Virus record (IMG/VR): IMGVR_UViG_2737471849_000007
Length of the DNA: 22,608 bases
Source: a virus
Taxonomy: Duplodnaviria; Heunggongvirae; Uroviricota; Caudoviricetes
Strand: one strand, 5' to 3'
The notes below the pieces were generated by a model. That model was not told the DNA's origin. It was given only the letters and a program-made list of their open reading frames with translations, and ran no database searches. Shown here piece by piece: positions 1,099 to 19,301 of the stretch. Positions within the stretch are counted from its first letter, which is position 1, and each line of letters starts with the position of its first letter. A program made the translations under genes and the position numbers.

Positions 1099-1156
1099 AA
1101 AAAGGGCGGCAGAGCAGTCACGGAGTAAAACTGATACCGCCAAACGTCACCAGAAA
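1099..1156 (-). ncRNA. dicF: DicF small regulatory RNA (antisense inhibitor of ftsZ translation)
   Basis: Reverse complement of 1099-1156 reads TTTCTGGTGACGTTTGGCGGTATCAGTTTTACTCCGTGACTGCTCTGCCGCCCTTTTT, matching remembered DicF and ending in a T-run; lies between ydfC and dicB. Ends approximate to a few nt. Confidence 0.85.
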
Positions 1157-2198: not shown

Positions 2199-2606
2199 TT
2201 ATTTTATTGATTTATTTTTACGCGCTTTAAGCATTTCTTCGAAGAGTTTGTTGAAGTTTTCTACTCTTGCGCGCATTTCAGACAGCAAGGCTTCCTGCTC
2301 GGAAGATGGAAGAGCATCGAATAATTCGATCAATTCTTTGTGGTTGGGAGTTAGCTCTGTTTCCACATGAAGTTCTTGTGCAGGCACTGGTGCCTTGTCT
2401 TCGTCACCAAACATTAGCCATGTAGGTGAGCACTTCAGAGCATCCGCTAAAGCAAACAATCGTTTTCCGACTGGCTGGGTTTCGTCTCTTTCCCATTGTG
2501 AAATTGTGACGTGAGCAACTCCAGCGAGGCGCGCGGCTTCTCGTTGTGTTAAGCGTAATTCTTTTCGTCGCGCCAGAACTCGCTGGCCCAGGGTTCTTGT
2601 ATCCAT
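2199..2606 (-). CDS. dicA: HTH (XRE-family) repressor DicA, 135 aa
   Basis: Track ORF of 135 aa with HTH segment LRLTQREAARLAGVAHVTISQWE; divergent from dicC with an operator palindrome between them. Confidence 0.9.
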   Translation of the reverse strand: MDTRTLGQRVLARRKELRLTQREAARLAGVAHVTISQWERDETQPVGKRLFALADALKCSPTWLMFGDEDKAPVPAQELHVETELTPNHKELIELFDALPSSEQEALLSEMRARVENFNKLFEEMLKARKNKSIK

Positions 2607-2683: not shown

Positions 2684-2914
2684 TTGATGCTTAAAGTTGA
2701 CGCAATTACTTTTTTTGGCAGCAAAACAAAGCTTGCCAATGCCGCAGGAGTGAGGCTGGCAAGTGTTGCTGCTTGGGGGATACTGGTTCCTGAAGGTCGC
2801 GCGATGCGTCTACAGGAGGCATCTGGCGGGGAGCTTCAGTATGATCCCAAAGTTTATGATGAATATCGTAAGACGAAGCGGGCGGGGCGGTTGAACAATG
2901 AAAATCACTCCTGA
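2684..2914 (+). CDS. dicC: Cro-like regulator DicC (76 aa)
   Basis: Track ORF of 76 aa, divergent from dicA; length and position match remembered dicC. Confidence 0.85.
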   Translation: MMLKVDAITFFGSKTKLANAAGVRLASVAAWGILVPEGRAMRLQEASGGELQYDPKVYDEYRKTKRAGRLNNENHS

Positions 2915-3419
2915 ACAGGCTCGTGAGGCTCTGGATGCCTGGATATGTCGACCAGGAATGACACAGGAGCAGGCGACGATATTAATCACTGAAGCATTCT
3001 GGGCTTTGAAAGAGCGCCCGAACATCGATGTTCAGCGTGTCACAGATGAAGGTGGCGCGGTTGATCAGCGAGCGCTTGGTGTTAATCGAGTGAAGATATT
3101 CGAACGCTGGAAGGCTATCGACACCAGGGATAAGCGTGAAAAGTTCACGGCGCTAGTGCCTGCGATTATGGAGGCTATCCGGATTAGTGATTTCAGGTTG
3201 TATCGTGAAATTACTGACGGAAAAAGCATCACGTGCATGATCGCCGGGTTAAACAAAGAATATGGCGATGTGGTGGAGTCCGGACTGCTTTTTGCTGATC
3301 CTGCCGTAGTGGATCGTGAAACTGACGAACTTATAGAAAAAGCAATTGCTTTCAAGCTTGCGTATCGACAGCAATACCAACAAAAAGCTGGATGGAATTA
3401 TGAGCCTTCTTTTTGCTGA
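2898..3419 (+). CDS. Hypothetical early-region protein (173 aa), in the cII/YdaT-like position
   Basis: ATG-initiated track ORF overlapping the dicC stop by 17 nt; sequence is protein-like; function not recognised. Confidence 0.5.
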   Translation: MKITPEQAREALDAWICRPGMTQEQATILITEAFWALKERPNIDVQRVTDEGGAVDQRALGVNRVKIFERWKAIDTRDKREKFTALVPAIMEAIRISDFRLYREITDGKSITCMIAGLNKEYGDVVESGLLFADPAVVDRETDELIEKAIAFKLAYRQQYQQKAGWNYEPSFC

Positions 3420-4365
3420 ACGCCCACTGGTTATAAACACGCAGCTGGCAATGAAAATTGGCTTAAACGAAGCCATTGTTTTGCAACAACTGCACTACTG
3501 GTTGAGAGATACCAACTCCGGCATGGAATGTGATGGTGTTCGCTGGATTTATAACACAACGGAACAATGGCTGGAACAGTTCCCATTCTGGTCAGAGTCA
3601 ACGTTAAAGCGCGCGTTTGCAAGTCTGAAAACGCTGGGGCTTTTGCGTTGTGAAAAGCTCAATAAATCAAAGTGCGATATGACCAATTTCTACACGATCA
3701 ACTATGGGAGCGAGCTTTTAGATGGTGGCAAATTGAGCGAATCCATCGGTTCAAAATGCGCCGCTCCATCAGGTCAAAATGACACGATGGAAGAGGTCAA
3801 AATGAAACGCTCCATTGATTCAAAACGACCCAATGTCATCGGGTCAAAATGGCCTGATGATCTTACAGAGAATACAACAGAGATTACTACAGAGAATAAA
3901 AACACTTTTCGTCCGGAAGCTTCGCAACCGGACCCGCAGACGACTGAACAGGATTTTTTAACCCGGAACTCCGACGCGGTTGTGTTTAGTGCGAAAAAAC
4001 GCCAGTGGGGTAGCAGGGAGGATTTGGCGTGTGCGCAGTGGATCTGGGGGCGGATCGTGGGTCTCTACGAACAGGCAGCCAGTGATGATGGCGAGATCAT
4101 GCGACCAAAAGAGCCTAACTGGACTGCCTGGGCCAATGACGTGCGCACAATGCGGATGCTGGATGGCAGAAGCCACAGACAAATTTGCGAAATGTTTGGT
4201 CGGGTTCAGCGAGATCCATTCTGGGTAAAAAACATCATGAGCCCGTCAAAGCTCCGCGAAAAATGGGACGAACTGGTCATCCGCCTGGGACGTTCACCTG
4301 TACAGCGTTGTGTTAATCATATTTCTGAACCGGATACAGAAATTCCGCCTGGTTTCAGAGGATAA
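3400..4365 (+). CDS. Phage replication initiator / replisome organiser (lambda O-like; about 322 aa from ATG 3400)
   Basis: Track ORF 3346..4365; likely start is ATG at 3400 (MSLLFAERPLVINTQLAMKIGLNEAIVLQQLHYWL...). N-terminal winged-helix-like domain, central low-complexity linker carrying DNA iterons, C-terminal domain resembling DnaT-like/phage conserved C-terminus (DPFWVKNIMSPSKLREKWDEL). Family assignment by pattern recognition only. Confidence 0.6.
   Translation: MSLLFAERPLVINTQLAMKIGLNEAIVLQQLHYWLRDTNSGMECDGVRWIYNTTEQWLEQFPFWSESTLKRAFASLKTLGLLRCEKLNKSKCDMTNFYTINYGSELLDGGKLSESIGSKCAAPSGQNDTMEEVKMKRSIDSKRPNVIGSKWPDDLTENTTEITTENKNTFRPEASQPDPQTTEQDFLTRNSDAVVFSAKKRQWGSREDLACAQWIWGRIVGLYEQAASDDGEIMRPKEPNWTAWANDVRTMRMLDGRSHRQICEMFGRVQRDPFWVKNIMSPSKLREKWDELVIRLGRSPVQRCVNHISEPDTEIPPGFRG
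3741..3900. repeat. Putative replication origin: five iterons at 23-bp spacing plus three AT-rich 12-bp repeats
   Basis: Core (G)GTCAAAATG / GTTCAAAATG / ATTCAAAACG ends at 3758, 3781, 3804, 3827, 3851, each preceded by a CCATC-like motif; then ACAGAGAATA / ACAGAGATTA / ACAGAGAATA at 3865, 3877, 3889. A 23-bp period is not a multiple of 3, so the repeat is DNA-level. Confidence 0.6.
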
Positions 4366-4405
4366 GTGTTGATTTCAGGTCATGAGGTAATTTTAAGGGG
4401 GACTT

Positions 4406-4828
4406 GTGGCAAAAGTTTTTACACAAGAAGAGCGGGAAAAAATTAAATGGCAGGTGGTGGAACTCGTGCACCAGAGCGGCCGTGAGACGTTACGGCAACT
4501 GGAAGCTAAAACAGGTGCGACTAGATATCTGATGAGCGTTCTTGCCAGAGAGCTGGTAGCCAGTGGCGATGTATACAACTCCGGCTACGGGTTATTCCCC
4601 TCTGAACAGGCGCGTAAGGACTGGCAAAACGCCCGCAAAAAACTCTCGAGGGCAAAGGTGAAGAAACCTGCTGTGGTTGATCCGGACCTTATCTGGTCAT
4701 CACCTGACGGAGAAATACGTCGCTACGACAGTCGCCTAAACATAATCTGTCGCGAGTGCCGGAAGAGCGAAGTTATGCAGCGCATACTGGCTTTCTATCA
4801 GGGTAATTTTCAGGACGTGGCGCAGTGA
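4406..4828 (+). CDS. Hypothetical protein (140 aa), possibly winged-helix; GTG start
   Basis: Track ORF; GTG at 4406 with AAGGGGGA upstream; stop overlaps the next gene's GTG start (GTGA). Confidence 0.5.
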   Translation: MAKVFTQEEREKIKWQVVELVHQSGRETLRQLEAKTGATRYLMSVLARELVASGDVYNSGYGLFPSEQARKDWQNARKKLSRAKVKKPAVVDPDLIWSSPDGEIRRYDSRLNIICRECRKSEVMQRILAFYQGNFQDVAQ

Positions 4829-5181
4829 GTGCACCGGCAACCATTCTTGATATGTGCTGTGGCAGCCGCATGTTCTGGTTCGATAAGTCTGACGAACGGG
4901 CGATATTTAGCGATATCAGAAAAGAAGGATACACATTACGCAATGGGAGACGCTTGATTATCAGCCCTGACATTATCGCAGATTTTCGTGCATTATCATT
5001 TGCAGACGCATCTTTTTCGATGGTTGTATTAGACCCTCCGCATCTTGAGCGTGTTGGTGATAACGCCTGGATGGGAAAGAAATATGGACGGCTGAATAAA
5101 GATGCCTGGCGTGATGATTTGCGACAGAGATTTAAAGAAGCTTTTCGGGTGTTGAGGCCGCACGGCGTTCTGATTTTTTAA
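4825..5181 (+). CDS. SAM-dependent DNA methyltransferase-like protein (118 aa as encoded; possibly truncated by in-frame TAA)
   Basis: Motif I-like ILDMCCGSR and motif IV-like VVLDPPH, then RVLRPHGVLIF; the frame stays open 29 codons past TAA (5179-5181) to TAA at 5269-5271. Confidence 0.5.
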   Translation: MSAPATILDMCCGSRMFWFDKSDERAIFSDIRKEGYTLRNGRRLIISPDIIADFRALSFADASFSMVVLDPPHLERVGDNAWMGKKYGRLNKDAWRDDLRQRFKEAFRVLRPHGVLIF

Positions 5182-5791
5182 TGGAATGAAACGCAAATAC
5201 CGGTAAGCCAGATTCTGGCACTGACAGATAGAAAGCCTGTTATCTGTCAACGAACAGGGAAAAAACGATAAAACCCACTGGATTATTTTTATGAAAGAGG
5301 CATCCAGTGAGTAGATTCGTAAGGTTACAGATACGTATATCTGAATAATTAAATTCAGTTCTGTAAATAAAACTTAATCCTTAACCGGATGGATTTCTGC
5401 ACCCTCAGAACATCAGGAGGCCGCCCGAAAGGGCGGTAGTGAAATGCGAAAGTTCAAAATTATTATTGAAACGGGAATAGCTGGTGGAGATTTTGAGGAT
5501 GTATTCGAAGTGGACGATGACGCAACACCTGATGAAATTCATGACGGAGCATAAGAAATTTTCTTTAACTACTGCAATTACTCATACCACGAAATAAAAG
5601 ACGATGAGGAAGAACAAAGTGGCTGATTTTTGTTCAGCTAAATATAACATCAGTTTTGAAGAGCGGGATGAACTATTAATGGACTATGGTGAGTTACGCG
5701 GTGGAAGTGCTGCTGATGTCGAATCCTAGCGTGATGACTATGAAGCGGGAAAAACTCCGGTCGAAGCATATTGTGATGAGTGGGGCGATGA

Positions 5792-6079
5792 ATGAGCGAG
5801 ATTAATTATCAGGAAGGGCATGAAACGGCGGGGCAAGCAAAACCAGTGACATGGCGATATCGCTACGTGAAAAAAGGCGTTACGGACTTTCAGGGGAAGT
5901 AGTGGTCTGGTGACTGGAAATATGTACCGAAAAAAGAGGATTGTAACGACAGGCCGAACTATCAAATTCAGGCCTTATTCACTGCCTCACCAGTCCCGGT
6001 TACATCAGAAGAATTGGTTAAAGCTGTGCACTTTTATGAACAACTAAAACGCGAAAATCCACCAACATCCGGCAACTAG
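5792..6079 (+). pseudogene. Small prophage ORF interrupted by in-frame TAG (36 codons + amber + 58 codons)
   Basis: ATG 5792 (ATGA-coupled to the preceding frame): MSEINYQEGHETAGQAKPVTWRYRYVKKGVTDFQGK, TAG at 5900-5902, then WSGDWKYVPKKEDCNDRPNYQIQALFTASPVPVTSEELVKAVHFYEQLKRENPPTSGN to TAG 6077-6079. Confidence 0.35.
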
Positions 6080-6333
6080 ATTAATGGGTTAACTATGTCG
6101 GTTAAACGACCAGCCAACTGAAAAAGCGGAAACCTGATTACAGGTTGCCAGATAAGGCAATGAGCTACCTGGCGCGGAACGGACTGATAAGTATGGGGAA
6201 TGTTTTACGATGAACCTTTAGACTAAAGAGTTTGTAACGCTATGTAAGTGATTTTTTCTGGTTTAGATATTTATATGTCCGGCCAAATTGAGGTGTGTTT
6301 AAATGTAATTGCACATTGATTGTAGGAGGAATA

Positions 6334-6513
6334 ATGAAAAACGCATTGCAGTTTTTGTTTGTTGCGTTCTGGTTGTTCGCATCATGTATGCCCATCATCT
6401 TCACAGCAAGGTATATGGAAAAAGTTGATGTTTTGATATTAATATTTGGATATATAAATGCCCTTTTTTTAGGGGTGTTCATGGCGGTCATGTGCATTGA
6501 ATACTGGCGGTAA
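6334..6513 (+). CDS. Small two-TM membrane protein (59 aa), function unknown
   Basis: AGGAGG about 7 nt upstream of ATG 6334; MKNALQFLFVAFWLFASCMPIIFTARYMEKVDVLILIFGYINALFLGVFMAVMCIEYWR has two hydrophobic helices; track ORF 6295..6513 is the same frame from an upstream alternative start. Confidence 0.45.
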   Translation: MKNALQFLFVAFWLFASCMPIIFTARYMEKVDVLILIFGYINALFLGVFMAVMCIEYWR

Positions 6514-6847
6514 ATACAGCGAACTCCATTGGTTTAGTTGGATATTTACTGTGCTGGACAAAAACGGTTTGCGGGGAAATCTTAGTTAAGTAGAATGACT
6601 GCGGGTGCTTGAGGCTATCTGCCTCGGGCACGAACACCAACGGCAGGTAGAGAAAAGCCCCAGTTAACATTACGCGTCCTGCAAGACGCTTAACATTAAT
6701 CTGAGGCCAATTTCATGCCAGACACATGTAGGTTAGCCTCTTACGTGCCGAAAGGCAAGGAGAAGCAGGCTATTGTTAACACCAAGCTGTAATGTCCCCT
6801 TTGAACCATTCTAAAATGTCCCCAGACAATTCTCTGGGGGATTTTTC

Positions 6848-6994
6848 ATGACCAAAGAAACTGTTACGATGAGTCATAAGGAACTCCACCGACTTCAGAT
6901 TATTCAGGAGTCAATTAATCGACATATTACTCAGGAACAAGCTGCGGCACGCATTGGCATTTCTATTCGGCAGGTTAAACGTCTGGTGCCATGA
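6848..6994 (+). pseudogene. HTH-domain ORF resembling the N-terminus of an IS transposase (48 aa), apparent remnant
   Basis: MTKETVTMSHKELHRLQIIQESINRHITQEQAAARIGISIRQVKRLVP then stop; downstream frames do not continue a transposase-like sequence; preceded by hairpin CCCCAGA-caattc-TCTGGGG (6819-6838). Family assignment from memory, uncertain. Confidence 0.3.
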
Positions 6995-7540
6995 ACGAGT
7001 GGATAATGCCCGTATTGATTTACGCTCAAAATACTATGTTAAACCTAAAGCTGACCATCCCTGGCTTACGCGCCGAACGCAAAGTCATCAGCAAGTTAAG
7101 CCCCCGAAGTTACCTAAAAAGAAGCCTGATCCCGATAAAAAAGATTGAAACCAAGATCGATTCGGTTGAGTGCATATCCATTCATAGGGTAGATTCTTAA
7201 GTCGCGTTTCTGGTGTTCATTTTCGGGTGGTTTGTTACTTGTTTTACCGGGGATATGCCAGAAACGCGCTGAGTCAGTCTGGGCGGTGCGCGTAATGAGG
7301 CGTTATGGTAAATAGCCTATGCTAATGTCCGCTAAGAGCAAGAAGCGGAAGTTGGCAGTTTTGTGGACTGTCCCCACAAAAGTGACTACAGAAATAGTTG
7401 CAATTCATAATTGATCATGGGTTGTCAGTTAAACTCGTGGCGATTTAAATAGACTAATTGGGAGTGCGTCCATTACTTATATCTTGTAATGTTAACTATC
7501 AGAAATGATACAAAGATAATATGTCTTTAAAGAAAAGGCT

Positions 7541-7571
7541 GATGGCGAAAAGTGGCCCGATGAGGGCCACA
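7541..7571 (-). terminator. Putative intrinsic terminator downstream of flxA
   Basis: GTGGCCC-gatgag-GGGCCAC hairpin (7552-7571), followed on the minus-strand transcript by UUUUCGCC. Confidence 0.45.
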
Positions 7572-7584
7572 ATACGGCTGTCAC

Positions 7585-7917
7585 TTAGACGTAAATATCA
7601 ATGGTGCCAGCGGTATTTGTATCGTCTTTTTTCTCTTCTTTTTTATCAGGCTGAACTGTCGCGTCTTTATTCTTTTTCTCTGCCTGCTGCCTTAACAACT
7701 GCTCCAGTTGAGCCCTGAGGCTTTCAATTTGCTTCTGTACCAATGCAGCCATTTCTTTTTTCTGCTGTGTCGTCATCCCCTCTTCCGATGAGATTTTCCC
7801 AAGCTTTTCAGTCAGCACCTGAATTTGTCTTGTGATTTTGGCTATTTCTGATGTTCCTTCCGGGGCGGAGTTGTTTGAAATAACGGTTGAGGTATTTCCC
7901 TGAATTGTGACAGACAT
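7585..7917 (-). CDS. flxA: FlxA (110 aa), sigma-28-dependent prophage protein
   Basis: Track ORF of 110 aa, Gln/Lys/Glu-rich coiled-coil-like sequence; a sigma-28-type promoter lies directly upstream. Confidence 0.88.
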   Translation of the reverse strand: MSVTIQGNTSTVISNNSAPEGTSEIAKITRQIQVLTEKLGKISSEEGMTTQQKKEMAALVQKQIESLRAQLEQLLRQQAEKKNKDATVQPDKKEEKKDDTNTAGTIDIYV

Positions 7918-7940
7918 AGATTTCTCCTTTTAAAAAAGCA

Positions 7941-7967
7941 CTATCGGCATGCACAAAAAAATCTTTA
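7941..7967 (-). promoter_or_regulatory. Sigma-28 (FliA) promoter for flxA
   Basis: Minus strand reads TAAAGATT-N11-GCCGATAG against consensus TAAAGTTT-N11-GCCGATAA; AAAGGAG RBS at 7923-7930 precedes the flxA ATG. Confidence 0.65.
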
Positions 7968-8119
7968 ATCGTATTTCTTGTGTCATTAATTGTTTGATGT
8001 TCAGATTGTTTTCCTCGCGGGCTGGCGCGCCTCAGAAAGTAAAGCTTGTTGACAGGGGTAAACGTTCGGCAATAATTTTCTGCCGCATGCGGGTGTTGCA
8101 TAAAACGTGCTACGTTCCT

Positions 8120-8425
8120 TTATCGACAGGTCAGGTCACCGCTCACCCGCCGACGAGAAAGCAACACTGACATGCTAAAGCAAAAAATAGATGAATAAGT
8201 TGAGTTGTGCATATGTAGCCTGACCGTCACAAAGTATATGGTGTCTGTACCAGTAAGATGATGGCCGGACTCTTTAAAAACGAGCTGACCTGCACAATAC
8301 AGGATGGACTTAGCAATGGCTGCTCCTGGCACAAAGCGGACAGTGATCACCGTTCTTACGACTACTTTCTGACTTCCTTCGTGACTTGCCCTAAGCATGT
8401 TGTAGTGCGATACTTGTAATGACAT
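8120..8425 (-). CDS. ydfV: Hypothetical protein YdfV (101 aa)
   Basis: Track ORF of 101 aa between flxA and relB; length matches remembered ydfV; sequence is unremarkable, so coding status is uncertain. Confidence 0.35.
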   Translation of the reverse strand: MSLQVSHYNMLRASHEGSQKVVVRTVITVRFVPGAAIAKSILYCAGQLVFKESGHHLTGTDTIYFVTVRLHMHNSTYSSIFCFSMSVLLSRRRVSGDLTCR

Positions 8426-8438
8426 TTGTAATTACAAG
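8414..8438. promoter_or_regulatory. relBE operator/promoter (relO)
   Basis: TTGTAATGACATTTGTAATTACAAG with palindromic TTGTAATTACAA core, about 12-36 nt upstream of the relB ATG. Confidence 0.65.
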
Positions 8439-8449
8439 AGGTGTAAGAC

Positions 8450-8689
8450 ATGGGTAGCATTAACCTGCGTATTGACGATGAACTTAAAGCGCGTTCTTAC
8501 GCCGCGCTTGAAAAAATGGGTGTAACTCCTTCTGAAGCGCTTCGTCTCATGCTCGAGTATATCGCTGACAATGAACGCTTGCCGTTCAAACAGACACTCC
8601 TGAGTGATGAAGATGCTGAACTTGTGGAGATAGTGAAAGAACGGCTTCGTAATCCTAAGCCAGTACGTGTGACGCTGGATGAACTCTGA
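8450..8689 (+). CDS. relB: Antitoxin RelB (79 aa)
   Basis: Track ORF MGSINLRIDDELKARSYAALEKMGVTPSEALRLMLEYIADNERLPF...; overlaps relE by 1 nt. Confidence 0.92.
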   Translation: MGSINLRIDDELKARSYAALEKMGVTPSEALRLMLEYIADNERLPFKQTLLSDEDAELVEIVKERLRNPKPVRVTLDEL

Positions 8690-8976
8690 TGGCGTATTTT
8701 CTGGATTTTGACGAGCGGGCACTAAAGGAATGGCGAAAGCTGGGCTCGACGGTACGTGAACAGTTGAAAAAGAAGCTGGTTGAAGTACTTGAGTCACCCC
8801 GGATTGAAGCAAACAAGCTCCGTGGTATGCCTGATTGTTACAAGATTAAGCTCCGGTCTTCAGGCTATCGCCTTGTATACCAGGTTATAGACGAGAAAGT
8901 TGTCGTTTTCGTGATTTCTGTTGGGAAAAGAGAACGCTCGGAAGTATATAGCGAGGCGGTCAAACGCATTCTCTGA
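8689..8976 (+). CDS. relE: mRNA interferase toxin RelE (95 aa)
   Basis: Track ORF MAYFLDFDERALKEWRKLGSTVREQLKKKLVEVLESPRIEANKLRGMPDCYKIKLRSSGYRLVYQV... Confidence 0.92.
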   Translation: MAYFLDFDERALKEWRKLGSTVREQLKKKLVEVLESPRIEANKLRGMPDCYKIKLRSSGYRLVYQVIDEKVVVFVISVGKRERSEVYSEAVKRIL

Positions 8977-9047
8977 ACCAAAGCATGACATCTCTGTTTC
9001 GCACCGAAGGTGACACTTCTGCTTTGCGTTGACAGGAGAAGCAGGCT

Positions 9048-9203
9048 ATGAAGCAGCAAAAGGCGATGTTAATCGCCCTGATCGTCATCTGTTTAACCGT
9101 CATAGTGACGGCACTGGTAACGAGGAAAGACCTCTGCGAGGTACGAATCCGAACCGGCCAGACGGAGGTCGCTGTCTTCACAGCTTACGAACCTGAGGAG
9201 TAA
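9048..9203 (+). CDS. hokD: Hok-family membrane toxin HokD/RelF (51 aa)
   Basis: Hand translation from ATG 9048: MKQQKAMLIALIVICLTVIVTALVTRKDLCEVRIRTGQTEVAVFTAYEPEE; below track cutoff; immediately downstream of relE. Confidence 0.85.
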   Translation: MKQQKAMLIALIVICLTVIVTALVTRKDLCEVRIRTGQTEVAVFTAYEPEE

Positions 9204-9271
9204 GAGACCCGGCGGGGGAGAAATCCCTCGCCACCTCTGATGTGGCAGGCATCCTCAACGCACCCGCACTT

Positions 9272-9299
9272 AACCCGCTTCGGCGGGTTTTTGTTTTTA
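9272..9299 (+). terminator. Intrinsic terminator after relB-relE-hokD
   Basis: CCCGC-ttcg-GCGGG hairpin followed by TTTTTGTTTTTA. Confidence 0.6.
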
Positions 9300-9419
9300 T
9301 TTTCAACGCGTTTGAAGTTCTGGACGGTGCCGGAATAGAATCAAAAATACTTAAGTAGCGCGCAGGGATAAGAGGGATGGTCCCTTAAAGGGGAGAGCTA
9401 ATTATCCGGAAGGATTCTG

Positions 9420-9671
9420 ATGATGAACATCGAAGAACTGCGTAAAATTTTTTGTGAAGATGGCCTCTATGCTGTGTGCGTTGAAAATGGAAATCTTGTT
9501 AGTCATTACCGCATTATGTGTTTGCGAAAGAATGGGGCTGCGTTAATTAATTTTGTGGATGCTCGGGTCACGGACGGATTTATCTTGCGCGAAGGTGAGT
9601 TTGTCACTTCATTACAGGCATTGAAAGAGATCGGAATAAAAGCTGGCTTTTCTGCTTTTTCAGGAGAATAA
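9420..9671 (+). CDS. rem: Prophage protein Rem (83 aa)
   Basis: Track ORF of 83 aa; GGAAGGA RBS 5 nt upstream; length and position match remembered rem. Confidence 0.75.
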   Translation: MMNIEELRKIFCEDGLYAVCVENGNLVSHYRIMCLRKNGAALINFVDARVTDGFILREGEFVTSLQALKEIGIKAGFSAFSGE

Positions 9672-9737
9672 ACTCATCTACAATCTTGCGCGGGGCTGAA
9701 CTCCCGCTGAGTAACACCGTGCCACCGGAGAAAACCG

Positions 9738-10016
9738 ATGGCACGCAACGCAAAATATTACAATTCTGATAATTCGCCCGTTCTTGCCTGCACGCACGGG
9801 CGGTATTCTCACGCATTCAAGTCTGAATGGTTCCAGCACCCTCCATGCACTGCAGAACAGGCCGAATGGCTGATTCATTCTTACCGCAGGCGCGGGTTCG
9901 AGGTTAAGAAAGCTCTCAGTCTCGACTATCGGCACTGGATAATCTCTGTCAGGCTGCCTTATTCCGAACGCCCACCACGTGCGTCCCGCACTTTCCAGCA
10001 ACGGATCTGGAGGTAA
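9738..10016 (+). CDS. Hypothetical protein (92 aa), possibly translationally coupled to ydfU
   Basis: ATG 9738 preceded by GGAGAAAA; its stop TAA (10014-10016) abuts the ydfU GTG start; sequence is Cys/His-containing and protein-like. Confidence 0.4.
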   Translation: MARNAKYYNSDNSPVLACTHGRYSHAFKSEWFQHPPCTAEQAEWLIHSYRRRGFEVKKALSLDYRHWIISVRLPYSERPPRASRTFQQRIWR

Positions 10017-10017
10017 C

Positions 10018-11067
10018 GTGCGGGTATTACTTAGACCTGTTCTGGTGCCTGAGCTTGGGCTGGTGGTCCTTAAGCCGGGCCGTGAATCCATACAGATATT
10101 TCATAATCCTCGAGTGCTGGTGGAACCGGAACCAAAAAGCATGCGTAATCTGCCATCCGGAGTCGTTCCTGCCGTTCGCCAGCCGCTGGCGGAAGACAAA
10201 ACATTGCTGCCGTTTTTTAGTAACGAACGGGTGATTCGTGCTGCTGGCGGCGTTGGCGCATTGTCCGACTGGCTATTACGTCATGTTACATCCTGCCAGT
10301 GGCCTAATGGCGATTACCATCACACTGAAACAGTCATTCACCGTTATGGTACCGGCGCAATGGTGTTGTGCTGGCACTGCGACAACCAACTGCGTGACCA
10401 GACATCGGAATCACTGGAGCTGCTTGCTCAACAAAATCTGACAGCATGGGTGATTGACGTCATCCGTCACGCAATAAGCGGTACGCAGGAGCGGGAATTA
10501 TCTTTGGCTGAATTATCCTGGTGGGCGGTCTGCAATCAGGTGGTGGATGCACTACCTGAGGCTGTATCGCGTCGTTCGCTGGGATTACCAGCGGAAAAAA
10601 TCTGCTCGGTGTACCGCGAAAGCGACATCGTACCGGGAGAGCAGACCGCCACCAGCATATTGAAACAACGCACAAAAAATCTTGCACCGTTGCCTTACGC
10701 CCACCAGCAACAAAAATCACCACAGGAAAAGACGGTGGTAAGCATCACCGTTGATCCAGAGTCTCCGGAATCTTTCATGAAGCTGCCTAAACGTCGCCGC
10801 TGGGTTAAGGAGAAATACACACGTTGGGTTAAGACACAGCCGTGTGCTTGCTGCGGTATGCCAGCCGACGATCCGCATCATCTGATTGGTCACGGGCAGG
10901 GCGGAATGGGAACAAAAGCACATGATCTCTTTGTGTTGCCTTTGTGCAGAAAGCATCACAACGAGCTGCATACGGATACAGTGGCATTTGAAGATAAGTA
11001 TGGCTCCCAACTGGAGCTGATATTTCGTTTTATCGATCGCGCGCTGGCAATTGGCGTACTGGCGTAA
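10018..11067 (+). CDS. ydfU: DUF968-like prophage protein YdfU (349 aa from GTG 10018; 362 aa from ATG 9979)
   Basis: Track ORF 9979..11067; internal GTG at 10018 with GGAGG 4 nt upstream gives 349 aa; C-terminal motif CACCGMPADDPHHLIGHG...CRKHHNELH resembles an HNH/zinc-finger signature. Confidence 0.75.
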   Translation: MRVLLRPVLVPELGLVVLKPGRESIQIFHNPRVLVEPEPKSMRNLPSGVVPAVRQPLAEDKTLLPFFSNERVIRAAGGVGALSDWLLRHVTSCQWPNGDYHHTETVIHRYGTGAMVLCWHCDNQLRDQTSESLELLAQQNLTAWVIDVIRHAISGTQERELSLAELSWWAVCNQVVDALPEAVSRRSLGLPAEKICSVYRESDIVPGEQTATSILKQRTKNLAPLPYAHQQQKSPQEKTVVSITVDPESPESFMKLPKRRRWVKEKYTRWVKTQPCACCGMPADDPHHLIGHGQGGMGTKAHDLFVLPLCRKHHNELHTDTVAFEDKYGSQLELIFRFIDRALAIGVLA

Positions 11068-11080
11068 GTGGAGAACGAGC

Positions 11081-11833
11081 ATGAACCTTGAAGCCTTACC
11101 AAAATATTACTCCCCAAAATCTCCAAAATTGAGCGATGACGCTCCAGCGACAGGCACCGGTTGTTTAACAATTACGGATGTAATGGCAGCGCAGGGGATG
11201 GTGCAGTCGAAAGCACCACTTGGGTTGGCCTTATTTCTGGCAAAAGTTGGTGTTCAGGACCCTCAGTTTGCGATTGAAGGCCTGCTAAATTACGCGATGG
11301 CACTGGATAACCCGACATTGAACAAATTGAGTGAAGAAATCCGGTTACAGATTATTCCTTACCTCGTGAGTTTTGCCTTTGCTGATTACTCCAGGTCTGC
11401 GGCAAGTAAGGCTCGCTGTGAGCATTGTTCAGGTACGGGATTTTATAATGTATTGCGCGAAGTGGTGAAACACTACAGACGCGGGGAATCTGTAATCAAG
11501 GAAGAATGGGTGAAGGAACTATGTCAGCATTGCCATGGTAAGGGCGAAGCCAGCACAGCGTGCAGAGGGTGTAAGGGTAAAGGGATTGTTCTGGATGAAA
11601 AAAGAACCCGGTTTCATGGCGTACCGGTATATAAGATTTGTGGGCGTTGTAATGGAAACCGGTTTAGTCGTTTACCGACCACGCTGGCACGACGTCATGT
11701 CCAGAAGCTGGTACCAGACCTGACCGATTATCAGTGGTATAAGGGGTATGCGGACGTCATTGGTAAACTGGTAACAAAGTGCTGGCAGGAAGAAGCATAC
11801 GCGGAAGCGCAATTGAGGAAGGTGACGAGATAA
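11081..11833 (+). CDS. quuQ: Late-gene antiterminator Q (250 aa from ATG 11081)
   Basis: Track ORF 11051..11833; Cys-rich zinc-binding region (CEHCSGTG...CQHCHGKG...CRGCKGKG...CGRCNG); followed by a promoter plus short-transcript terminator. Confidence 0.8.
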   Translation: MNLEALPKYYSPKSPKLSDDAPATGTGCLTITDVMAAQGMVQSKAPLGLALFLAKVGVQDPQFAIEGLLNYAMALDNPTLNKLSEEIRLQIIPYLVSFAFADYSRSAASKARCEHCSGTGFYNVLREVVKHYRRGESVIKEEWVKELCQHCHGKGEASTACRGCKGKGIVLDEKRTRFHGVPVYKICGRCNGNRFSRLPTTLARRHVQKLVPDLTDYQWYKGYADVIGKLVTKCWQEEAYAEAQLRKVTR

Positions 11834-11864
11834 ATGATTTTTGCTGAAGATGGCGACATGATGT

Positions 11865-11893
11865 TTGCATTTTTCAAAAAATATGGATAAAAT
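11865..11893 (+). promoter_or_regulatory. Putative late promoter PR' (-35 TTGCAT, 17-bp spacer, -10 TAAAAT)
   Basis: Sigma-70-like hexamers about 30 nt after the Q stop and about 50-70 nt upstream of a strong terminator, as in lambda PR'/qut/tR'. Confidence 0.45.
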
Positions 11894-11938
11894 TTTTTCA
11901 ACGATGGGCTTTGTATACCCGACGTTAAGAAAAAGTAG

Positions 11939-11966
11939 AAAACCCGCTGATGAGCGGGTTTTGTGC
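11939..11966 (+). terminator. tR'-like intrinsic terminator downstream of Q
   Basis: Perfect hairpin CCCGCT-gatg-AGCGGG followed by TTTTGTGCTTT and preceded by an A-run. Confidence 0.6.
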
Positions 11967-12254
11967 TTTAAATGGGGCAATGGTAATGTTGAATCTCATC
12001 CCGGGACTCATGTCTGTTAACTTATTATTTAGCTGGTGACTTGGTTATTTGCCTGATGTTTAAAATGTTTTCTTCCAGTACAATGTCCCTAAACACAATG
12101 AGTCTGCTTATTATATTATTAGCAGAGCTATTACGGCCAAAGTACAGCATAAGCTTTTAAAGCCAATCAACCAGTCATCAAGACAGACGGGGTTATTCAT
12201 AAAAACTCTCCATGTGTGATCCGATGGGGCCTGAAATTAAAGCTTTAATATAGC

Positions 12255-12467
12255 TCATGAAAGGTAAACATTGGCAGCTGAAGGGCCACGCAGACCATTT
12301 ATCCGGCAAAATTCCACGCGTAATCCGGTGGTAATTTCTTCTGCATCGCGGAGATTGAGCGCTGAGACATGAAGCTGGACATCGATACGACCATCGGATG
12401 GGGTGATAAGACCCTTGCCGCTTTTGCCGTCAAAGGTTTTGACAATTCCTGTCATTTTACGGGACAA
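12255..12467 (-). CDS. cspF: Cold-shock-domain protein CspF (70 aa)
   Basis: Track [29 protein letters not shown]... with CspA-family fold but a degenerate RNP motif. Confidence 0.88.
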
Positions 12468-12767
12468 AAAAATTCCTTAATACTGATAACTTGGCGCACT
12501 ATACACACGTTCCTGAAGAAAGCTATAGTTTTTTGATGGGGTTGAAGATGGCTGGATGTCTAAAATAAACATTGCTTCATATGTTCAACTATGCGTTAAT
12601 GATTGCGTCGGTTTGAAGAACAGACGATATACGAAGTAGTTTACTAAAGCAGTTCTCATTTCAGGTGTTATTCACTTATTCCTTCTTTGAGTCTCTCCAA
12701 TTAAGTACGAAGTCGTTTCTGTTATGCAAACCATTTATGCCGAAAGGCTCAAGTTAAGGAATGTAGA

Positions 12768-12983
12768 ATGTCAAATAAAATGACTGGTTTAGTAAAATGG
12801 TTTAACGCTGATAAAGGTTTCGGCTTTATTTCTCCTGTTGATGGTAGTAAAGATGTGTTTGTGCATTTTTCTGCGATTCAGAATGATAATTATCGAACCT
12901 TATTTGAAGGTCAAAAGGTTACCTTCTCTATAGAGAGTGGTGCTAAAGGTCCTGCAGCAGCAAATGTCATCATTACTGATTAA
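12768..12983 (+). CDS. cspB: Cold-shock protein CspB (71 aa)
   Basis: Track [41 protein letters not shown]... with canonical RNP1/RNP2 motifs; AAGGAATG RBS; long AT-rich 5' leader. Confidence 0.92.
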
Positions 12984-13267
12984 AATTCATCGCTCGTCTG
13001 TATACGATAACGAAGAAGGCTGATGCCTGAGTAGAGATACGGACAGAGTAGTGAATATTGGATCTCTTTAATAAAAAGTAAGGAGGTCCAATACATGAAA
13101 CAATGGCTAGCATATTTGGCAAAATCTTAATCAGGAAAAGTATGCTAACCATTGTGGTGAAGTGCAGGTTTGCTGCATGAATAGTTTTACAGCAGAAGCT
13201 AACTGCTGGCATGGCAAAACAAAGTGCGTAAGTGGATGACTCCCACAAAAAGCACCACAATCTCAAA

Positions 13268-13287
13268 CCCGCTCAGGCGGGTTTTTT
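13268..13287. terminator. Probable bidirectional intrinsic terminator between cspB and the convergent zinc-ribbon ORF
   Basis: CCCGC-tcag-GCGGG hairpin followed by TTTTTT on the plus strand; T-rich on the other side too. Confidence 0.55.
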
Positions 13288-13346
13288 ATTATCTGCTTTA
13301 AATATATTATTAAAATATAAAAAATACTTGTTACTAATAAAATCAA

Positions 13347-13517
13347 TCAGGCTACAGCTTTAAGATTTGTCTGGAATACTTTGTTGCAATGAGGGCAGAT
13401 CAAAAGGGCACCTTTTTGTACTCTTGAAAAACTGTGTTCTGACTCTTGGGTGCAGTTTGGGCAGGAACATTTAACGAGATAATTACGGCGTGATTTTGAG
13501 TTTTTACGTTCTGACAT
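13347..13517 (-). CDS. Small zinc-ribbon protein (56 aa from ATG rc 13515-13517)
   Basis: Internal ATG of track ORF 13347..13568 with AGGAAAA about 9 nt upstream; MSERKNSKSRRNYLVKCSCPNCTQESEHSFSRVQKGALLICPHCNKVFQTNLKAVA has CxCxxC...CxxC. May correspond to a K-12 small protein (possibly ynfU), not asserted. Confidence 0.5.
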   Translation of the reverse strand: MSERKNSKSRRNYLVKCSCPNCTQESEHSFSRVQKGALLICPHCNKVFQTNLKAVA

Positions 13518-13736
13518 AGGCTTTTCCTGTATAAATGGCCGTATACAGTACACTAAATATGAAAACATTTCTCGTATTATTATTTTATATATGACTTTCT
13601 TTCAAAATAATTACCCACATTTTTAATGTGTATGTTTTTTTAGCGCCGTTGAGAACAACGTGTGCTGTCAAAACTACCCCGTAGACTCCGATCTTTTCAA
13701 ACATATTGCACCATCCGTGTACATCGGGGTGAGGAT

Positions 13737-15292: not shown

Positions 15293-15655
15293 GGTAATAT
15301 TAAATCGGAACATTTACATCGCGGAATGTAAAATTTAAATAAAAAGGACTCTTCCATGAGCCAAAATTCCTGAAATCTTAAGGGTAAGATAAAAGGTCTT
15401 AATCAGAATGACACGTTATTATTAATAAATAAAGCTATTCTTTCATTGCTGTGTTTTTCTTTACAAAAGTAATCCTTGCTATGGGTGGTTAATCATGCGT
15501 TAATGGTGTTCTGGTTTGTTACAAATTTATCTGAAGCAGTCATTGTTATAATTTTATTATTTGTACCTCTTGAGATTTCCTTGTTGGTTTTTCTCTCTGA
15601 TATTTTTTTTCGGACCATTCTGCCCAAGGGCTAATTTCTTCAAAAGGTAATAATT

Positions 15656-15868
15656 ATGTCTAACAAAATGACTGGTTTAGTGAAATGGTTTAACCCTGAA
15701 AAAGGTTTTGGTTTCATCACGCCGAAAGATGGCAGCAAAGATGTGTTTGTCCATTTCTCAGCAATTCAGAGCAACGATTTCAAAACATTAACTGAGAATC
15801 AGGAAGTTGAATTTGGTATTGAGAACGGACCTAAAGGTCCTGCCGCTGTTCATGTAGTGGCGCTTTGA
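15656..15868 (+). CDS. cspI: Cold-shock protein CspI (70 aa)
   Basis: Track [41 protein letters not shown]...; CspA-family RNP motifs. Confidence 0.92.
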
Positions 15869-15956
15869 GGTAGACAATATTACAAACCATATTCACTTTA
15901 GATGCCCGTGTTGTCATGGTTCCCAGTATAGAACATCATCTTTTGATGTTTCTGAC

Positions 15957-18726: not shown

Positions 18727-19301
18727 TGGCATTCAGAATGAGTGAACAACCACGGACCATAAAAATTTATAATCTGCTGGCCGGAACTAATGAATTTATT
18801 GGTGAAGGTGACGCATATATTCCGCCTCATACAGGTCTGCCAGCAAACAGTACCGATATTGCACCACCAGATATTCCTGCTGGCTTTGTGGCTGTTTTCA
18901 ACAGTGATAAGGCATCGTGGCATCTCGTTGAAGACCATCGGGGTAAAACGGTTTATGACGTAGCGTCAGGGGACGCGTTATTTATTTCTGAACTCGGTCC
19001 GTTACCGGAAAATGTTACCTGGTTATCGCCGGAAGGGGAGTTTCAGAAGTGGAACGGCACAGCCTGGGTGAAAGATGCAGAAGCAGAAAAACTGTTCCGG
19101 ATCCGAGAGGCGGAAGAAACAAAAAACAGCCTGATGCAGGTAGCCAGTGAGCATATTGCGCCACTTCAGGATGCTGTAGATCTGGAAATCGCAACGGAGG
19201 AAGAAACCTCATTGCTGGAAGCCTGGAAAAAGTATCGGGTGTTGCTGAACCGTGTTGATACGTCAACTGCACAGGATATTGAATGGCCAGCACTGCCGTA
19301 G
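18726..19301 (+). CDS. tfaQ: Tail fibre assembly protein (191 aa)
   Basis: Track ORF; ATG overlaps the stfQ stop (TAATG); adjacent to the Pin invertase gene. Confidence 0.85.

Follow-up and report, generated by a model that had tools for sequence, protein, structure and literature searches.

Decayed accessory genes beside a hok/sok locus probably split by an ISEsa1-family transposon in a Qin-type Escherichia coli prophage

The stretch of DNA analysed here, hereafter the window, is a viral record of 22,608 nucleotides (IMG/VR record IMGVR_UViG_2737471849_000007, Caudoviricetes). Judged from its sequence it is a Qin-type defective lambdoid prophage of Escherichia coli, collinear with Qin of E. 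coli IAI1 and K-12 (dicB/DicF, dicA, dicC ... flxA, relBE, hokD, rem, ydfU, Q, cspB/cspF). Between its replication genes and flxA lies a gene-poor zone (5182-7584; positions are those of the window unless a locus is named), which a sequence-only reading had described as the scar of past insertion or deletion events. Comparison with relatives and with other copies of the element concerned makes it highly probable that the zone is two unrelated things lying side by side, namely decayed accessory genes on the left and, on the right, one half of a split hok/sok toxin-antitoxin (TA) locus together with the edge of the transposon that split it.

The explanation we favour for the right-hand part is that a DDE transposon of about 3.3 kb, of the ISEsa1 family (IS1202 family), inserted into the ribosome-binding region of hok, 16 nt past a conserved GGCA, with duplication of those 16 bp. 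To the left of the insertion (6569-6773) would remain the hok promoter, the leader, the start of mok and the complete antisense sok gene; to its right would lie the hok frame and the 3' fold-back element, that is, hokD/relF at 9048, directly downstream of the transposon's outward-facing relBE operon. Afterwards, in the source strain, the transposase would have lost 1,041 bp internally and the element would have become immobile. This explanation is built on direct observations. The lesions in the pseudogenes, an Rfam match and the way in which the two halves tile intact loci were seen in the sequence, as were the terminal repeats and the duplicated 16-mer, and in other hok-family loci insertions recur at the corresponding position, each with a local duplication of its own.

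The two halves of the hok/sok locus comprise the following features, for which the main point of comparison is the phage vB_EcoS-640R1 (locus L004).

6569-6596, plus strand: putative hok mRNA promoter (TTGCGG, 16 nt, TAGAAT), predicted from sequence and kept in L004
6603-6773, plus strand: 5' half of hok/sok (Rfam RF01794), with the leader and its translational-activator element tac (6601-6614), the Sok target region and the mok ATG at 6715
6645-6758, minus strand: putative sok antisense RNA gene, with -35 TTGCCT (reverse complement of 6753-6758) and -10 TAACCT (reverse complement of 6730-6735), 17 nt apart
9048-9267, plus strand: severed 3' half, comprising the hokD (relF) coding sequence (9048-9203) and the 3' fold-back-inhibition element fbi (9253-9267), by alignment to L004

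The Rfam family RF01794 (sok, which also covers the hok leader) matches 6603-6774 on the plus strand over the full model (model positions 1-157) with 99.8 bits, against a gathering score of 59. The mok frame opens at 6715 and runs to a stop at 6790-6792, inside the transposon end. The predicted Sok transcript, from about 6724 to 6645 on the minus strand, forms a long hairpin followed by a U-tract, and its 80-nt fold has an energy of -31.5 kcal/mol (z = -5.1). The -10 hexamer is identical in L004 and the -35 hexamer in both L004 and the relative Rac-442; the two sit where R1 sok presumably has TTGCGC and TATCCT. A generic promoter scan did not call this site.

In both vB_EcoS-640R1 and Rac-442 the locus is intact, the leader running straight into a hok frame almost identical to hokD. 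Positions 6560-6773 and 9034-9300 of the window together tile these intact loci and overlap only by AGGAGAAGCAGGCTAT; identity to vB_EcoS-640R1 is 197/213 in the 5' half and 259/266 in the hokD half. Leader and Hok open reading frame (ORF) are contiguous in L004 and L025 and are not so here, where hokD begins at 9048, 2,260 bp off. Pairing of the regions that contain tac (6599-6625) and fbi (9241-9275) across the two halves gives -38.3 kcal/mol, compared with -17.4 +/- 3.2 for shuffled sequences (best shuffle -29.9), and is as expected for the two ends of a single hok mRNA. Next after hokD in the window comes the gene rem, which is also the one after hok in the Rac-type relative. Read together, these comparisons identify the window as carrying a split hok/sok locus and not an intact member of the family, and Sok would still be transcribed, with no toxin left to control.

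The 9-bp direct repeats around a hairpin at 6664-6698, which the sequence-only reading had listed among the traces of past events, are present. As a duplication scar they were rejected: they are identical in the two intact relatives and pair, on the minus strand only, through G-U into one long Sok stem, and they belong to the native hok/sok leader.

The transposon and its parts are as follows.

6774-9033, plus strand: ISEsa1-family (IS1202-family) transposon, 2,260 bp here and about 3,300 bp with an intact transposase; left arm, flxA cargo, relBE right arm
6758-6773, no strand: left copy of the 16-bp target-site duplication, AGGAGAAGCAGGCTAT, from the exact repeat count and empty sites
9034-9049, no strand: right copy of the 16-bp target-site duplication, an exact repeat of the left copy
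6774-6799, plus strand: left terminal inverted repeat (IRL), TGTTAACACCAAGCTGTAATGTCCCC, invariant in 19 copies
9009-9033, plus strand: right terminal repeat (IRR), ending GCGTTGAC, an inverted match to IRL
6848-6994, plus strand: N-terminal 46-codon helix-turn-helix (HTH) fragment of the transposase, by alignment to intact 446-aa genes and BLAST against IAI1
6999-7148, plus strand: 'ydfW', the last 49 transposase codons, by alignment to three plasmid copies in which the transposase gene is intact
7321-7353, no strand: last part of the left arm that is conserved, with an imperfect palindrome (in better-kept copies GTCCGCT...AGCGGAC) and cargo from 7354
7585-7917, minus strand: flxA, cargo gene (Pfam FlxA, 1.9e-14), with a terminator hairpin at 7553-7571
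8323-9033, plus strand: conserved right arm, with relB (8450-8689), relE (8689-8976) and IRR (9009-9033), from copy comparison

The overlap of the two hok/sok halves is the target-site duplication itself, as AGGAGAAGCAGGCTAT occurs exactly twice in the window, flanking IRL and IRR, and once at the empty site in L004 and L025. The element starts with TGTTAACACCAAGCTGTAATGTCCCC and ends with GGTGACACTTCTGCTTTGCGTTGAC. Offset by 1 nt, its two ends agree as inverted repeats at 18 of 26 positions, for which the rate at random window positions is about 1.3e-4, and they have the same 13-nt spacing between conserved blocks. A second AATGTCC repeat and a palindrome (6815-6842) lie just before the transposase start. 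The hok promoter was considered as a driver of the transposase and is disfavoured, a terminator-like hairpin with a T-run lying between IRL and the transposase start.

In intact copies the transposase has 446 aa, with HTH_28 and rve_3 domains (Pfam). The HTH/transposase-like fragment that the sequence-only reading had noticed is present at 6848-6994 and is the first piece of this gene; two other readings of 'ydfW', as a separate gene or as a piece of an integrase, were rejected, since it is collinear with the transposase 3' end. Between the two pieces 1,041 bp are deleted, with the junction within 6985-6989 (CGTCTGGTGC|CATGAACG) and at most 1-2 nt of microhomology. This junction was absent from 5,426 complete E. 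coli genomes; unless it is peculiar to the source strain, it is an artefact of assembly. A BLAST hint that the breakpoint at 6986 is common to K-12 and the window was rejected, as K-12 keeps about 30 more transposase bases and the two deletions are independent.

Comparison of copies by cargo type divides the element into a left arm of 1,620 bp (to 7353), a right arm of 711 bp (from 8323) and a variable middle. On the right arm relB (79 aa) and relE (95 aa) are both open and adjacent, and are annotated as RelB and RelE in IAI1, where the region is 99.97% identical. The cargo slot has an imperfect palindrome (roughly 11-6-11) at either edge, with the arms GTCCGCT and AGCGGAC in both. In the Qin-type copy it carries flxA and most of 'ydfV', and in other copies ncr/chr metal-resistance genes or other DNA take the place of flxA. 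flxA had been taken as the prophage landmark that bounds the zone on the right; it is instead cargo of an element whose left end is within the zone. Nor does 5182-7584 hold as one unit, for 5182 falls inside a methyltransferase pseudogene and 7584 inside the transposon. The sequence-only reading had found the zone's own features and missed two things beyond its edge, the run of the element to 9033 and hokD, 2.3 kb off, as the other half of the locus.

The slot palindromes are at 7321-7353 and 8317-8340 in the window, 2609-2632 in L008, 6038-6061 in L011 and 3033-3056 in L012. The left half of the right-hand palindrome varies with the cargo, as if exchange took place inside the site, and the palindrome at 6815-6842 is similar; the only recombinase that the element encodes is the transposase. 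The ORF 'ydfV' (8120-8425, minus strand) spans the boundary between cargo and right arm at 8323, its first 34 codons lying in the relB upstream region common to all copies. It has no Pfam match and may be a chimeric or spurious ORF.

Members of the IS1202 family of insertion sequences (IS) have a transposase of 400-500 aa with HTH and DDE core, of which the window keeps only the 46- and 49-codon pieces; its imperfect terminal repeats (about 22-29 bp) and 16-bp duplication agree with the family. The compact IS length of 1.3-2 kb is exceeded, the unit measuring from 3.3 kb (Qin, IncI and IncF copies) to 12.8 kb (Phytobacter) with relBE and cargo. The element is better described as a transposon, or a transporter IS (tIS), built on an ISEsa1-type transposase.

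Copies with the same arms occur in pndA of a Salmonella IncI plasmid, in hok of an Enterobacter IncF plasmid and in hok of a Phytobacter plasmid, with the local duplications ATGGAGGGGCTATGAT, AGGAGAAGAAGGCCAT and AGGAGAAGTCAGCTAT, respectively. The Phytobacter copy (L008 1016-13857, plasmid NZ_AP018757) is 12.8 kb long and carries ncrYCBA nickel and chrBA chromate resistance genes between transposase and relBE. Further duplications were found at the right junctions of L011 and L021 (16 bp), L012 (14 bp) and L009, a non-hok chromosomal site (16 bp with two mismatches). Counted by insertion type and leaving the window aside, the duplication has 16 bp in four, 14 bp in one and 16 bp with two mismatches in one. 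Among plasmids the arms are similarly distributed (647 records with the left arm, 784 with the right), mostly on conjugative Klebsiella and Enterobacter plasmids.

A genome scan with one genome per species, which required an exact left-end 26-mer, returned 16 loci from Klebsiella, Enterobacter, Kluyvera, Citrobacter, Pantoea, Shigella and other genera. The junction set, in which scan loci were taken with the window and the three plasmid copies, holds 19 left junctions. Fifteen of these abut a hok leader, with at least nine distinct leader sequences, and there the insertion point is always 16-17 nt after the conserved GGCA, irrespective of the position of the ATG. Rfam sok matches that reach the gathering score stop exactly at IRL in six loci, and matches below that score do so in two further flank types. 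A GGCA 17 nt from the insertion point is also present at two of the three non-hok left flanks, which is only a hint.

Because the duplicated bases differ between targets, they derive from the target, and the duplications therefore indicate staggered-cut DDE transposition and not site-specific recombination or homologous spread. Together the copies point to a cargo-carrying transposon that targets hok, whose transposase would recognise hok-leader DNA. Selection for insertions that disarm the toxin could add to the enrichment at hok; precision within 1 nt would be left unexplained by such selection.

Among the junctions, the left end in L020 (6792-6817, Citrobacter portucalensis) abuts a hok Shine-Dalgarno sequence and ATG in inverted orientation (…CATGGCCTTCTTCTCC|TGTTAAC); either the element inserted there the other way round, almost at the same nucleotide, or an inversion took place. 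In the Kluyvera contig L024 an Rfam match to isrO, a Salmonella Hfq-binding small RNA (sRNA), at 6628-6741 on the minus strand (58.8 bits) overlaps IRL at 6718-6743; an ISEsa1-type end may lie within or next to the sequence that the isrO family covers. Plasmid pENTE01 of Enterobacter sp. 638 was tried as a clean, more divergent member of the family and set aside, its region being rearranged and uninformative.

The left part of the zone and the stretch up to the hok promoter hold the following features.

4870-5314, plus strand: S-adenosylmethionine-dependent methyltransferase pseudogene, from the NCBI Prokaryotic Genome Annotation Pipeline (PGAP) on identical IAI1 DNA, three-frame translation and a weak Pfam Methyltransf_11 match
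5444-5626, plus strand: DUF7167 pseudogene (AAA to TAA at 5552)
5619-5795, plus strand: 58-codon accessory ORF, pseudogene (start ATG to GTG; TGG to TAG at 5727)
5792-6213, plus strand: hypothetical-protein pseudogene (TAG at 5900 and 6077, frame change; PGAP 'frameshifted; internal stop' in IAI1)
6334-6513, plus strand: intact 59-aa ORF with two transmembrane segments, with AGGAGG at 6324-6329, four nt before the ATG

By BLAST the window is 99.7% identical to IAI1 over 2776-6989 and 99.97% identical over 6986-13584, and 5182-6985 is 100% identical. The IAI1 RefSeq annotation (PGAP) places pseudogenes at window 4870-5314, 5444-5626 and 5792-6213, followed by transposase pieces and 'ydfW'. The longest ORFs within 5182-7584 have 85, 75, 72, 69 and 64 aa, compared with flanking ORFs of 118-339 aa on the left and 110 aa (flxA) on the right, which bears out the description of the zone as free of intact ORFs over 100 codons. 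Scans of the zone with Rfam and for tRNA genes gave no tRNA gene and no further RNA family.

TAA codons interrupt the methyltransferase frame at 5179 and 5269, a frameshift is reported by PGAP as well, and the zone start at 5182 is just past the first of these stops. With the TAA at 5552 repaired, the second frame matches Pfam DUF7167 at 1.9e-13, and intact 60-aa orthologues are present in L004, L025 and L026, which include a Rac-type prophage and ArgO145. Intact 58-aa versions of the 5619-5795 ORF were seen by alignment in vB_EcoS-640R1 and Rac-442. Within the third small pseudogene an indel of 61 alignment columns (about 6075-6135) is a gap in phage vB_EcoS-640R1, edged by the near-repeat GGCAAC / GGAAAC. 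The stretch 5182-6213 would represent a methyltransferase tail and three small ORFs located after the replication genes and lost one by one through nonsense, start-codon and frameshift mutations, in a neutral decay.

The interrupted small ORFs that the sequence-only reading had reported are located, with their in-frame stops in the methyltransferase, DUF7167, 5619-5795 and 5792-6213 frames, and its other named features, the palindromes and the two-transmembrane ORF at 6334-6513 included, are likewise in the sequence. Its account of the stretch as decayed agrees with the intact versions of two of the small ORFs in vB_EcoS-640R1, a Rac-type prophage and ArgO145. As a scar of insertion and deletion it stands for the right-hand part, where there is one insertion and one deletion (the 1,041 bp in the transposase), and fails for the left 1 kb, which decayed by point mutations. 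The decay zone in itself is ordinary and already annotated as pseudogenes.

The 59-aa membrane ORF is plausibly a real gene, to judge by its sequence. Its homologues number 35, all of those with a source name being from E. coli or Shigella, and no Pfam family was found common to the ORF and these 35. On the opposite strand, phage records annotate a protein of 83-85 aa ('hornerin' in one record), which corresponds to 6240-6497 (minus strand) in the window, 3843-4094 (minus strand) in L004 and 6441-6692 (minus strand) in L003. The plus-strand ORF with its strong Shine-Dalgarno sequence looks like the better gene call of the two. The suggestion that the zone is a place for unannotated small genes or sRNAs is in keeping with the predicted sok sRNA gene and this plausible small protein gene.

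Three other explanations were weighed. The first would have the zone as a functional island of short genes and sRNAs, in which the interrupted ORFs are selected short peptides. In its favour are the 387 complete E. coli genomes that hold the same zone sequence, the strong Shine-Dalgarno sequence of the 59-aa ORF and the sok promoter and hairpin, unchanged in comparison with intact relatives. However, the 387 genomes, and likewise 'phage PhiR42_1' (99% identity), in which the same short ORFs recur, represent one and the same grounded prophage and not independent intact relatives, and identity among them is not independent conservation. Two of the interrupted ORFs are longer and intact in relatives, the lesions are classic ones (nonsense codons, ATG to GTG, frameshift) and K-12 has deleted the whole stretch. 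We regard a functional island as quite unlikely.

The second holds that a plain 1.6-kb ISEsa1 lies in the hok leader and that relBE-flxA was already beside hokD through an unrelated earlier event, there being no composite transposon. The ISfinder size of ISEsa1 is 1,609 bp, the conserved left arm ends about 1,620 bp from IRL, and in the Phytobacter copy the bases past the left arm weakly resemble the right end. The curated 1.6-kb unit, however, has no detectable duplication, whereas in six cases locally derived duplications of 14-16 bp flank the whole of IRL...relBE-IRR. The 13-nt spacing of IRL is shared by the distal end only, and the similar plasmid distributions of the two arms also speak for a single unit, which leaves a plain ISEsa1 very unlikely. 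Spread of the relBE-flxA segment among hok loci by homologous recombination or gene conversion in place of transposition, for which the conserved leader and Shine-Dalgarno sequence of hok-family loci could offer support, is scarcely credible, as the 16-mer found on either side of a copy is always that of its host locus and differs between loci, where recombination would carry donor flanks and create no duplication, and as L009 has insertion and duplication at a non-hok chromosomal site.

Several points weigh against the favoured explanation of decayed genes beside a transposon-split hok/sok locus, among them the ISfinder size and the Phytobacter bases given above. No more than 18 of 26 positions agree between the terminal repeats, the duplication in L012 is 14 bp long and that in L009 has two mismatches. 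Of the 19 left junctions, four do not abut a hok leader in the same orientation (L009, L015 and L024 non-hok; L020 inverted hok). The exact 26-mer samples only recent, near-identical copies, and L011, L014, L018 and L021 share a plasmid backbone, which brings the independent events to about 9-10 and not 19. The copy in the window appears immobile, its transposase dead. Expression of Sok and of the 59-aa ORF is predicted from sequence only, and several homologues of the latter are truncated. Alignment with relatives gave no intact form of the third small pseudogene (5792-6213), whose TAG at 5900 is shared with vB_EcoS-640R1.

Elsewhere in the window, Rfam matches comprise the DicF sRNA, two cspA-type thermoregulator leaders and the IS009 RNA family (226.7 bits), at 1104-1155 (minus strand), 12607-12999 (plus strand), 15510-15895 (plus strand) and 19069-19267 (plus strand). 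The sole stretch in the first 13.5 kb without a BLAST match to IAI1 is 2280-2775; it overlaps the dicA-like repressor ORF at 2199-2606 (minus strand) and suggests a different immunity-region allele.

The best known counterpart of the locus is hokD (relF) in the relBEF operon of K-12 Qin, which is the same locus; hokD, relB, relE, flxA and 'ydfW' of the window are collinear with it, and in K-12 too the right transposon end and the 16-mer precede hokD. Pedersen and Gerdes are said to have described hokD in 1999 as being without sok, mok and an upstream leader. K-12 has a larger deletion, from ydfX into the transposase tail, because of which the sok/leader half and the left transposon end are invisible there, whereas the window and IAI1 keep both; since the window, like IAI1, keeps them, the duplication and the mechanism are exposed.

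Chromosomal hok loci inactivated by other mobile elements are also known. The same authors are said to have reported hokA (IS150) and hokC and hokE (both IS186) of E. coli K-12 as disrupted by IS. The insertion points are not known to be shared between those loci, whereas the element described here enters many hok-family loci at an identical nucleotide, give or take 1 nt. Tn7 at attTn7 offers a comparable insertion beside a recognised sequence, at a fixed offset and in one orientation, as an analogy only: the machinery is unrelated, and the present element encodes no targeting protein besides its transposase. The tIS, such as ISKpn21, are built alike, one pair of terminal repeats enclosing passenger DNA together with a single transposase; the passengers of the present element differ in including a functional-looking type II TA operon fixed at the right end and a palindrome-bounded, exchangeable slot.

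Closest among IS is the ISAjo2/ISAba32 subgroup of the IS1202 family, found next to pdif/XerCD sites, which has the same transposase family (N-terminal HTH and DDE core), imperfect terminal repeats of about 25 bp and a likewise oriented insertion at a fixed distance from a short recognised site. In contrast, the target of the present element is the hok leader (GGCA and 16-17 nt) and not a Xer site, its duplication is 16 bp and not 5-6 bp, and it is an element of 3.3-12.8 kb with relBE and variable cargo and not a 1.5-kb IS. ISEsa1 has been curated with 1,609 bp, terminal repeats of 15/22 and no detectable duplication, within a family range of terminal-repeat values from 15/22 to 25/25 (PMC10132070). 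It is listed in the ISTde1 subgroup, with duplications of 16-17 bp, and targeting within the family is reported for the Xer-site (ISAba32) subgroup only (bioRxiv 10.1101/2022.12.17.520857). The integration of plasmid-derived relBE at hokD has already been noted, going by the citation of Ramisetty and Santhosh (2016) in PMC6379469. Our literature search found no description that links ISEsa1, the 16-bp duplication and hok targeting, and a recent Hok survey makes no mention of the element. The integration of relBE at hokD is known, then, and the transposon, its duplication and its target preference appear not to have been described.

A wider reading is put forward tentatively, as possible and short of probable. 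ISEsa1-relBE would be a site-specific transposon that recognises hok-family leader DNA (...GCC-GAAA-GGCA, with insertion 16-17 nt downstream), disarms the resident hok/sok to leave an orphan sok, installs its own relBE, puts the captured hok frame behind relBE (the origin of relBEF) and transports in a palindrome-bounded slot a cargo that can be exchanged, be it flxA or genes for nickel and chromate resistance. If true, one TA-bearing mobile element would be specialised to hijack the TA locus of another.

The decayed left half of the zone amounts to routine pseudogene erosion in a grounded prophage. The transposon would explain why hokD is without sok, mok and leader, the other half being, or in K-12 having once been, 2-3 kb upstream, and the single relB-relE-hokD operon would be an outcome of how the element inserted. 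The textbook 'chromosomal' relBE would form the fixed right arm of a transposon that is common among conjugative plasmids of Enterobacterales, some copies carrying nickel and chromate resistance genes. What is curated as a 1.6-kb ISEsa1 appears to be no more than the left arm, the whole unit being larger and having a 16-bp duplication. Should the preference for hok leaders be true targeting, it would be a second target specificity in the IS1202 family beside Xer sites, and it might serve site-directed insertion.

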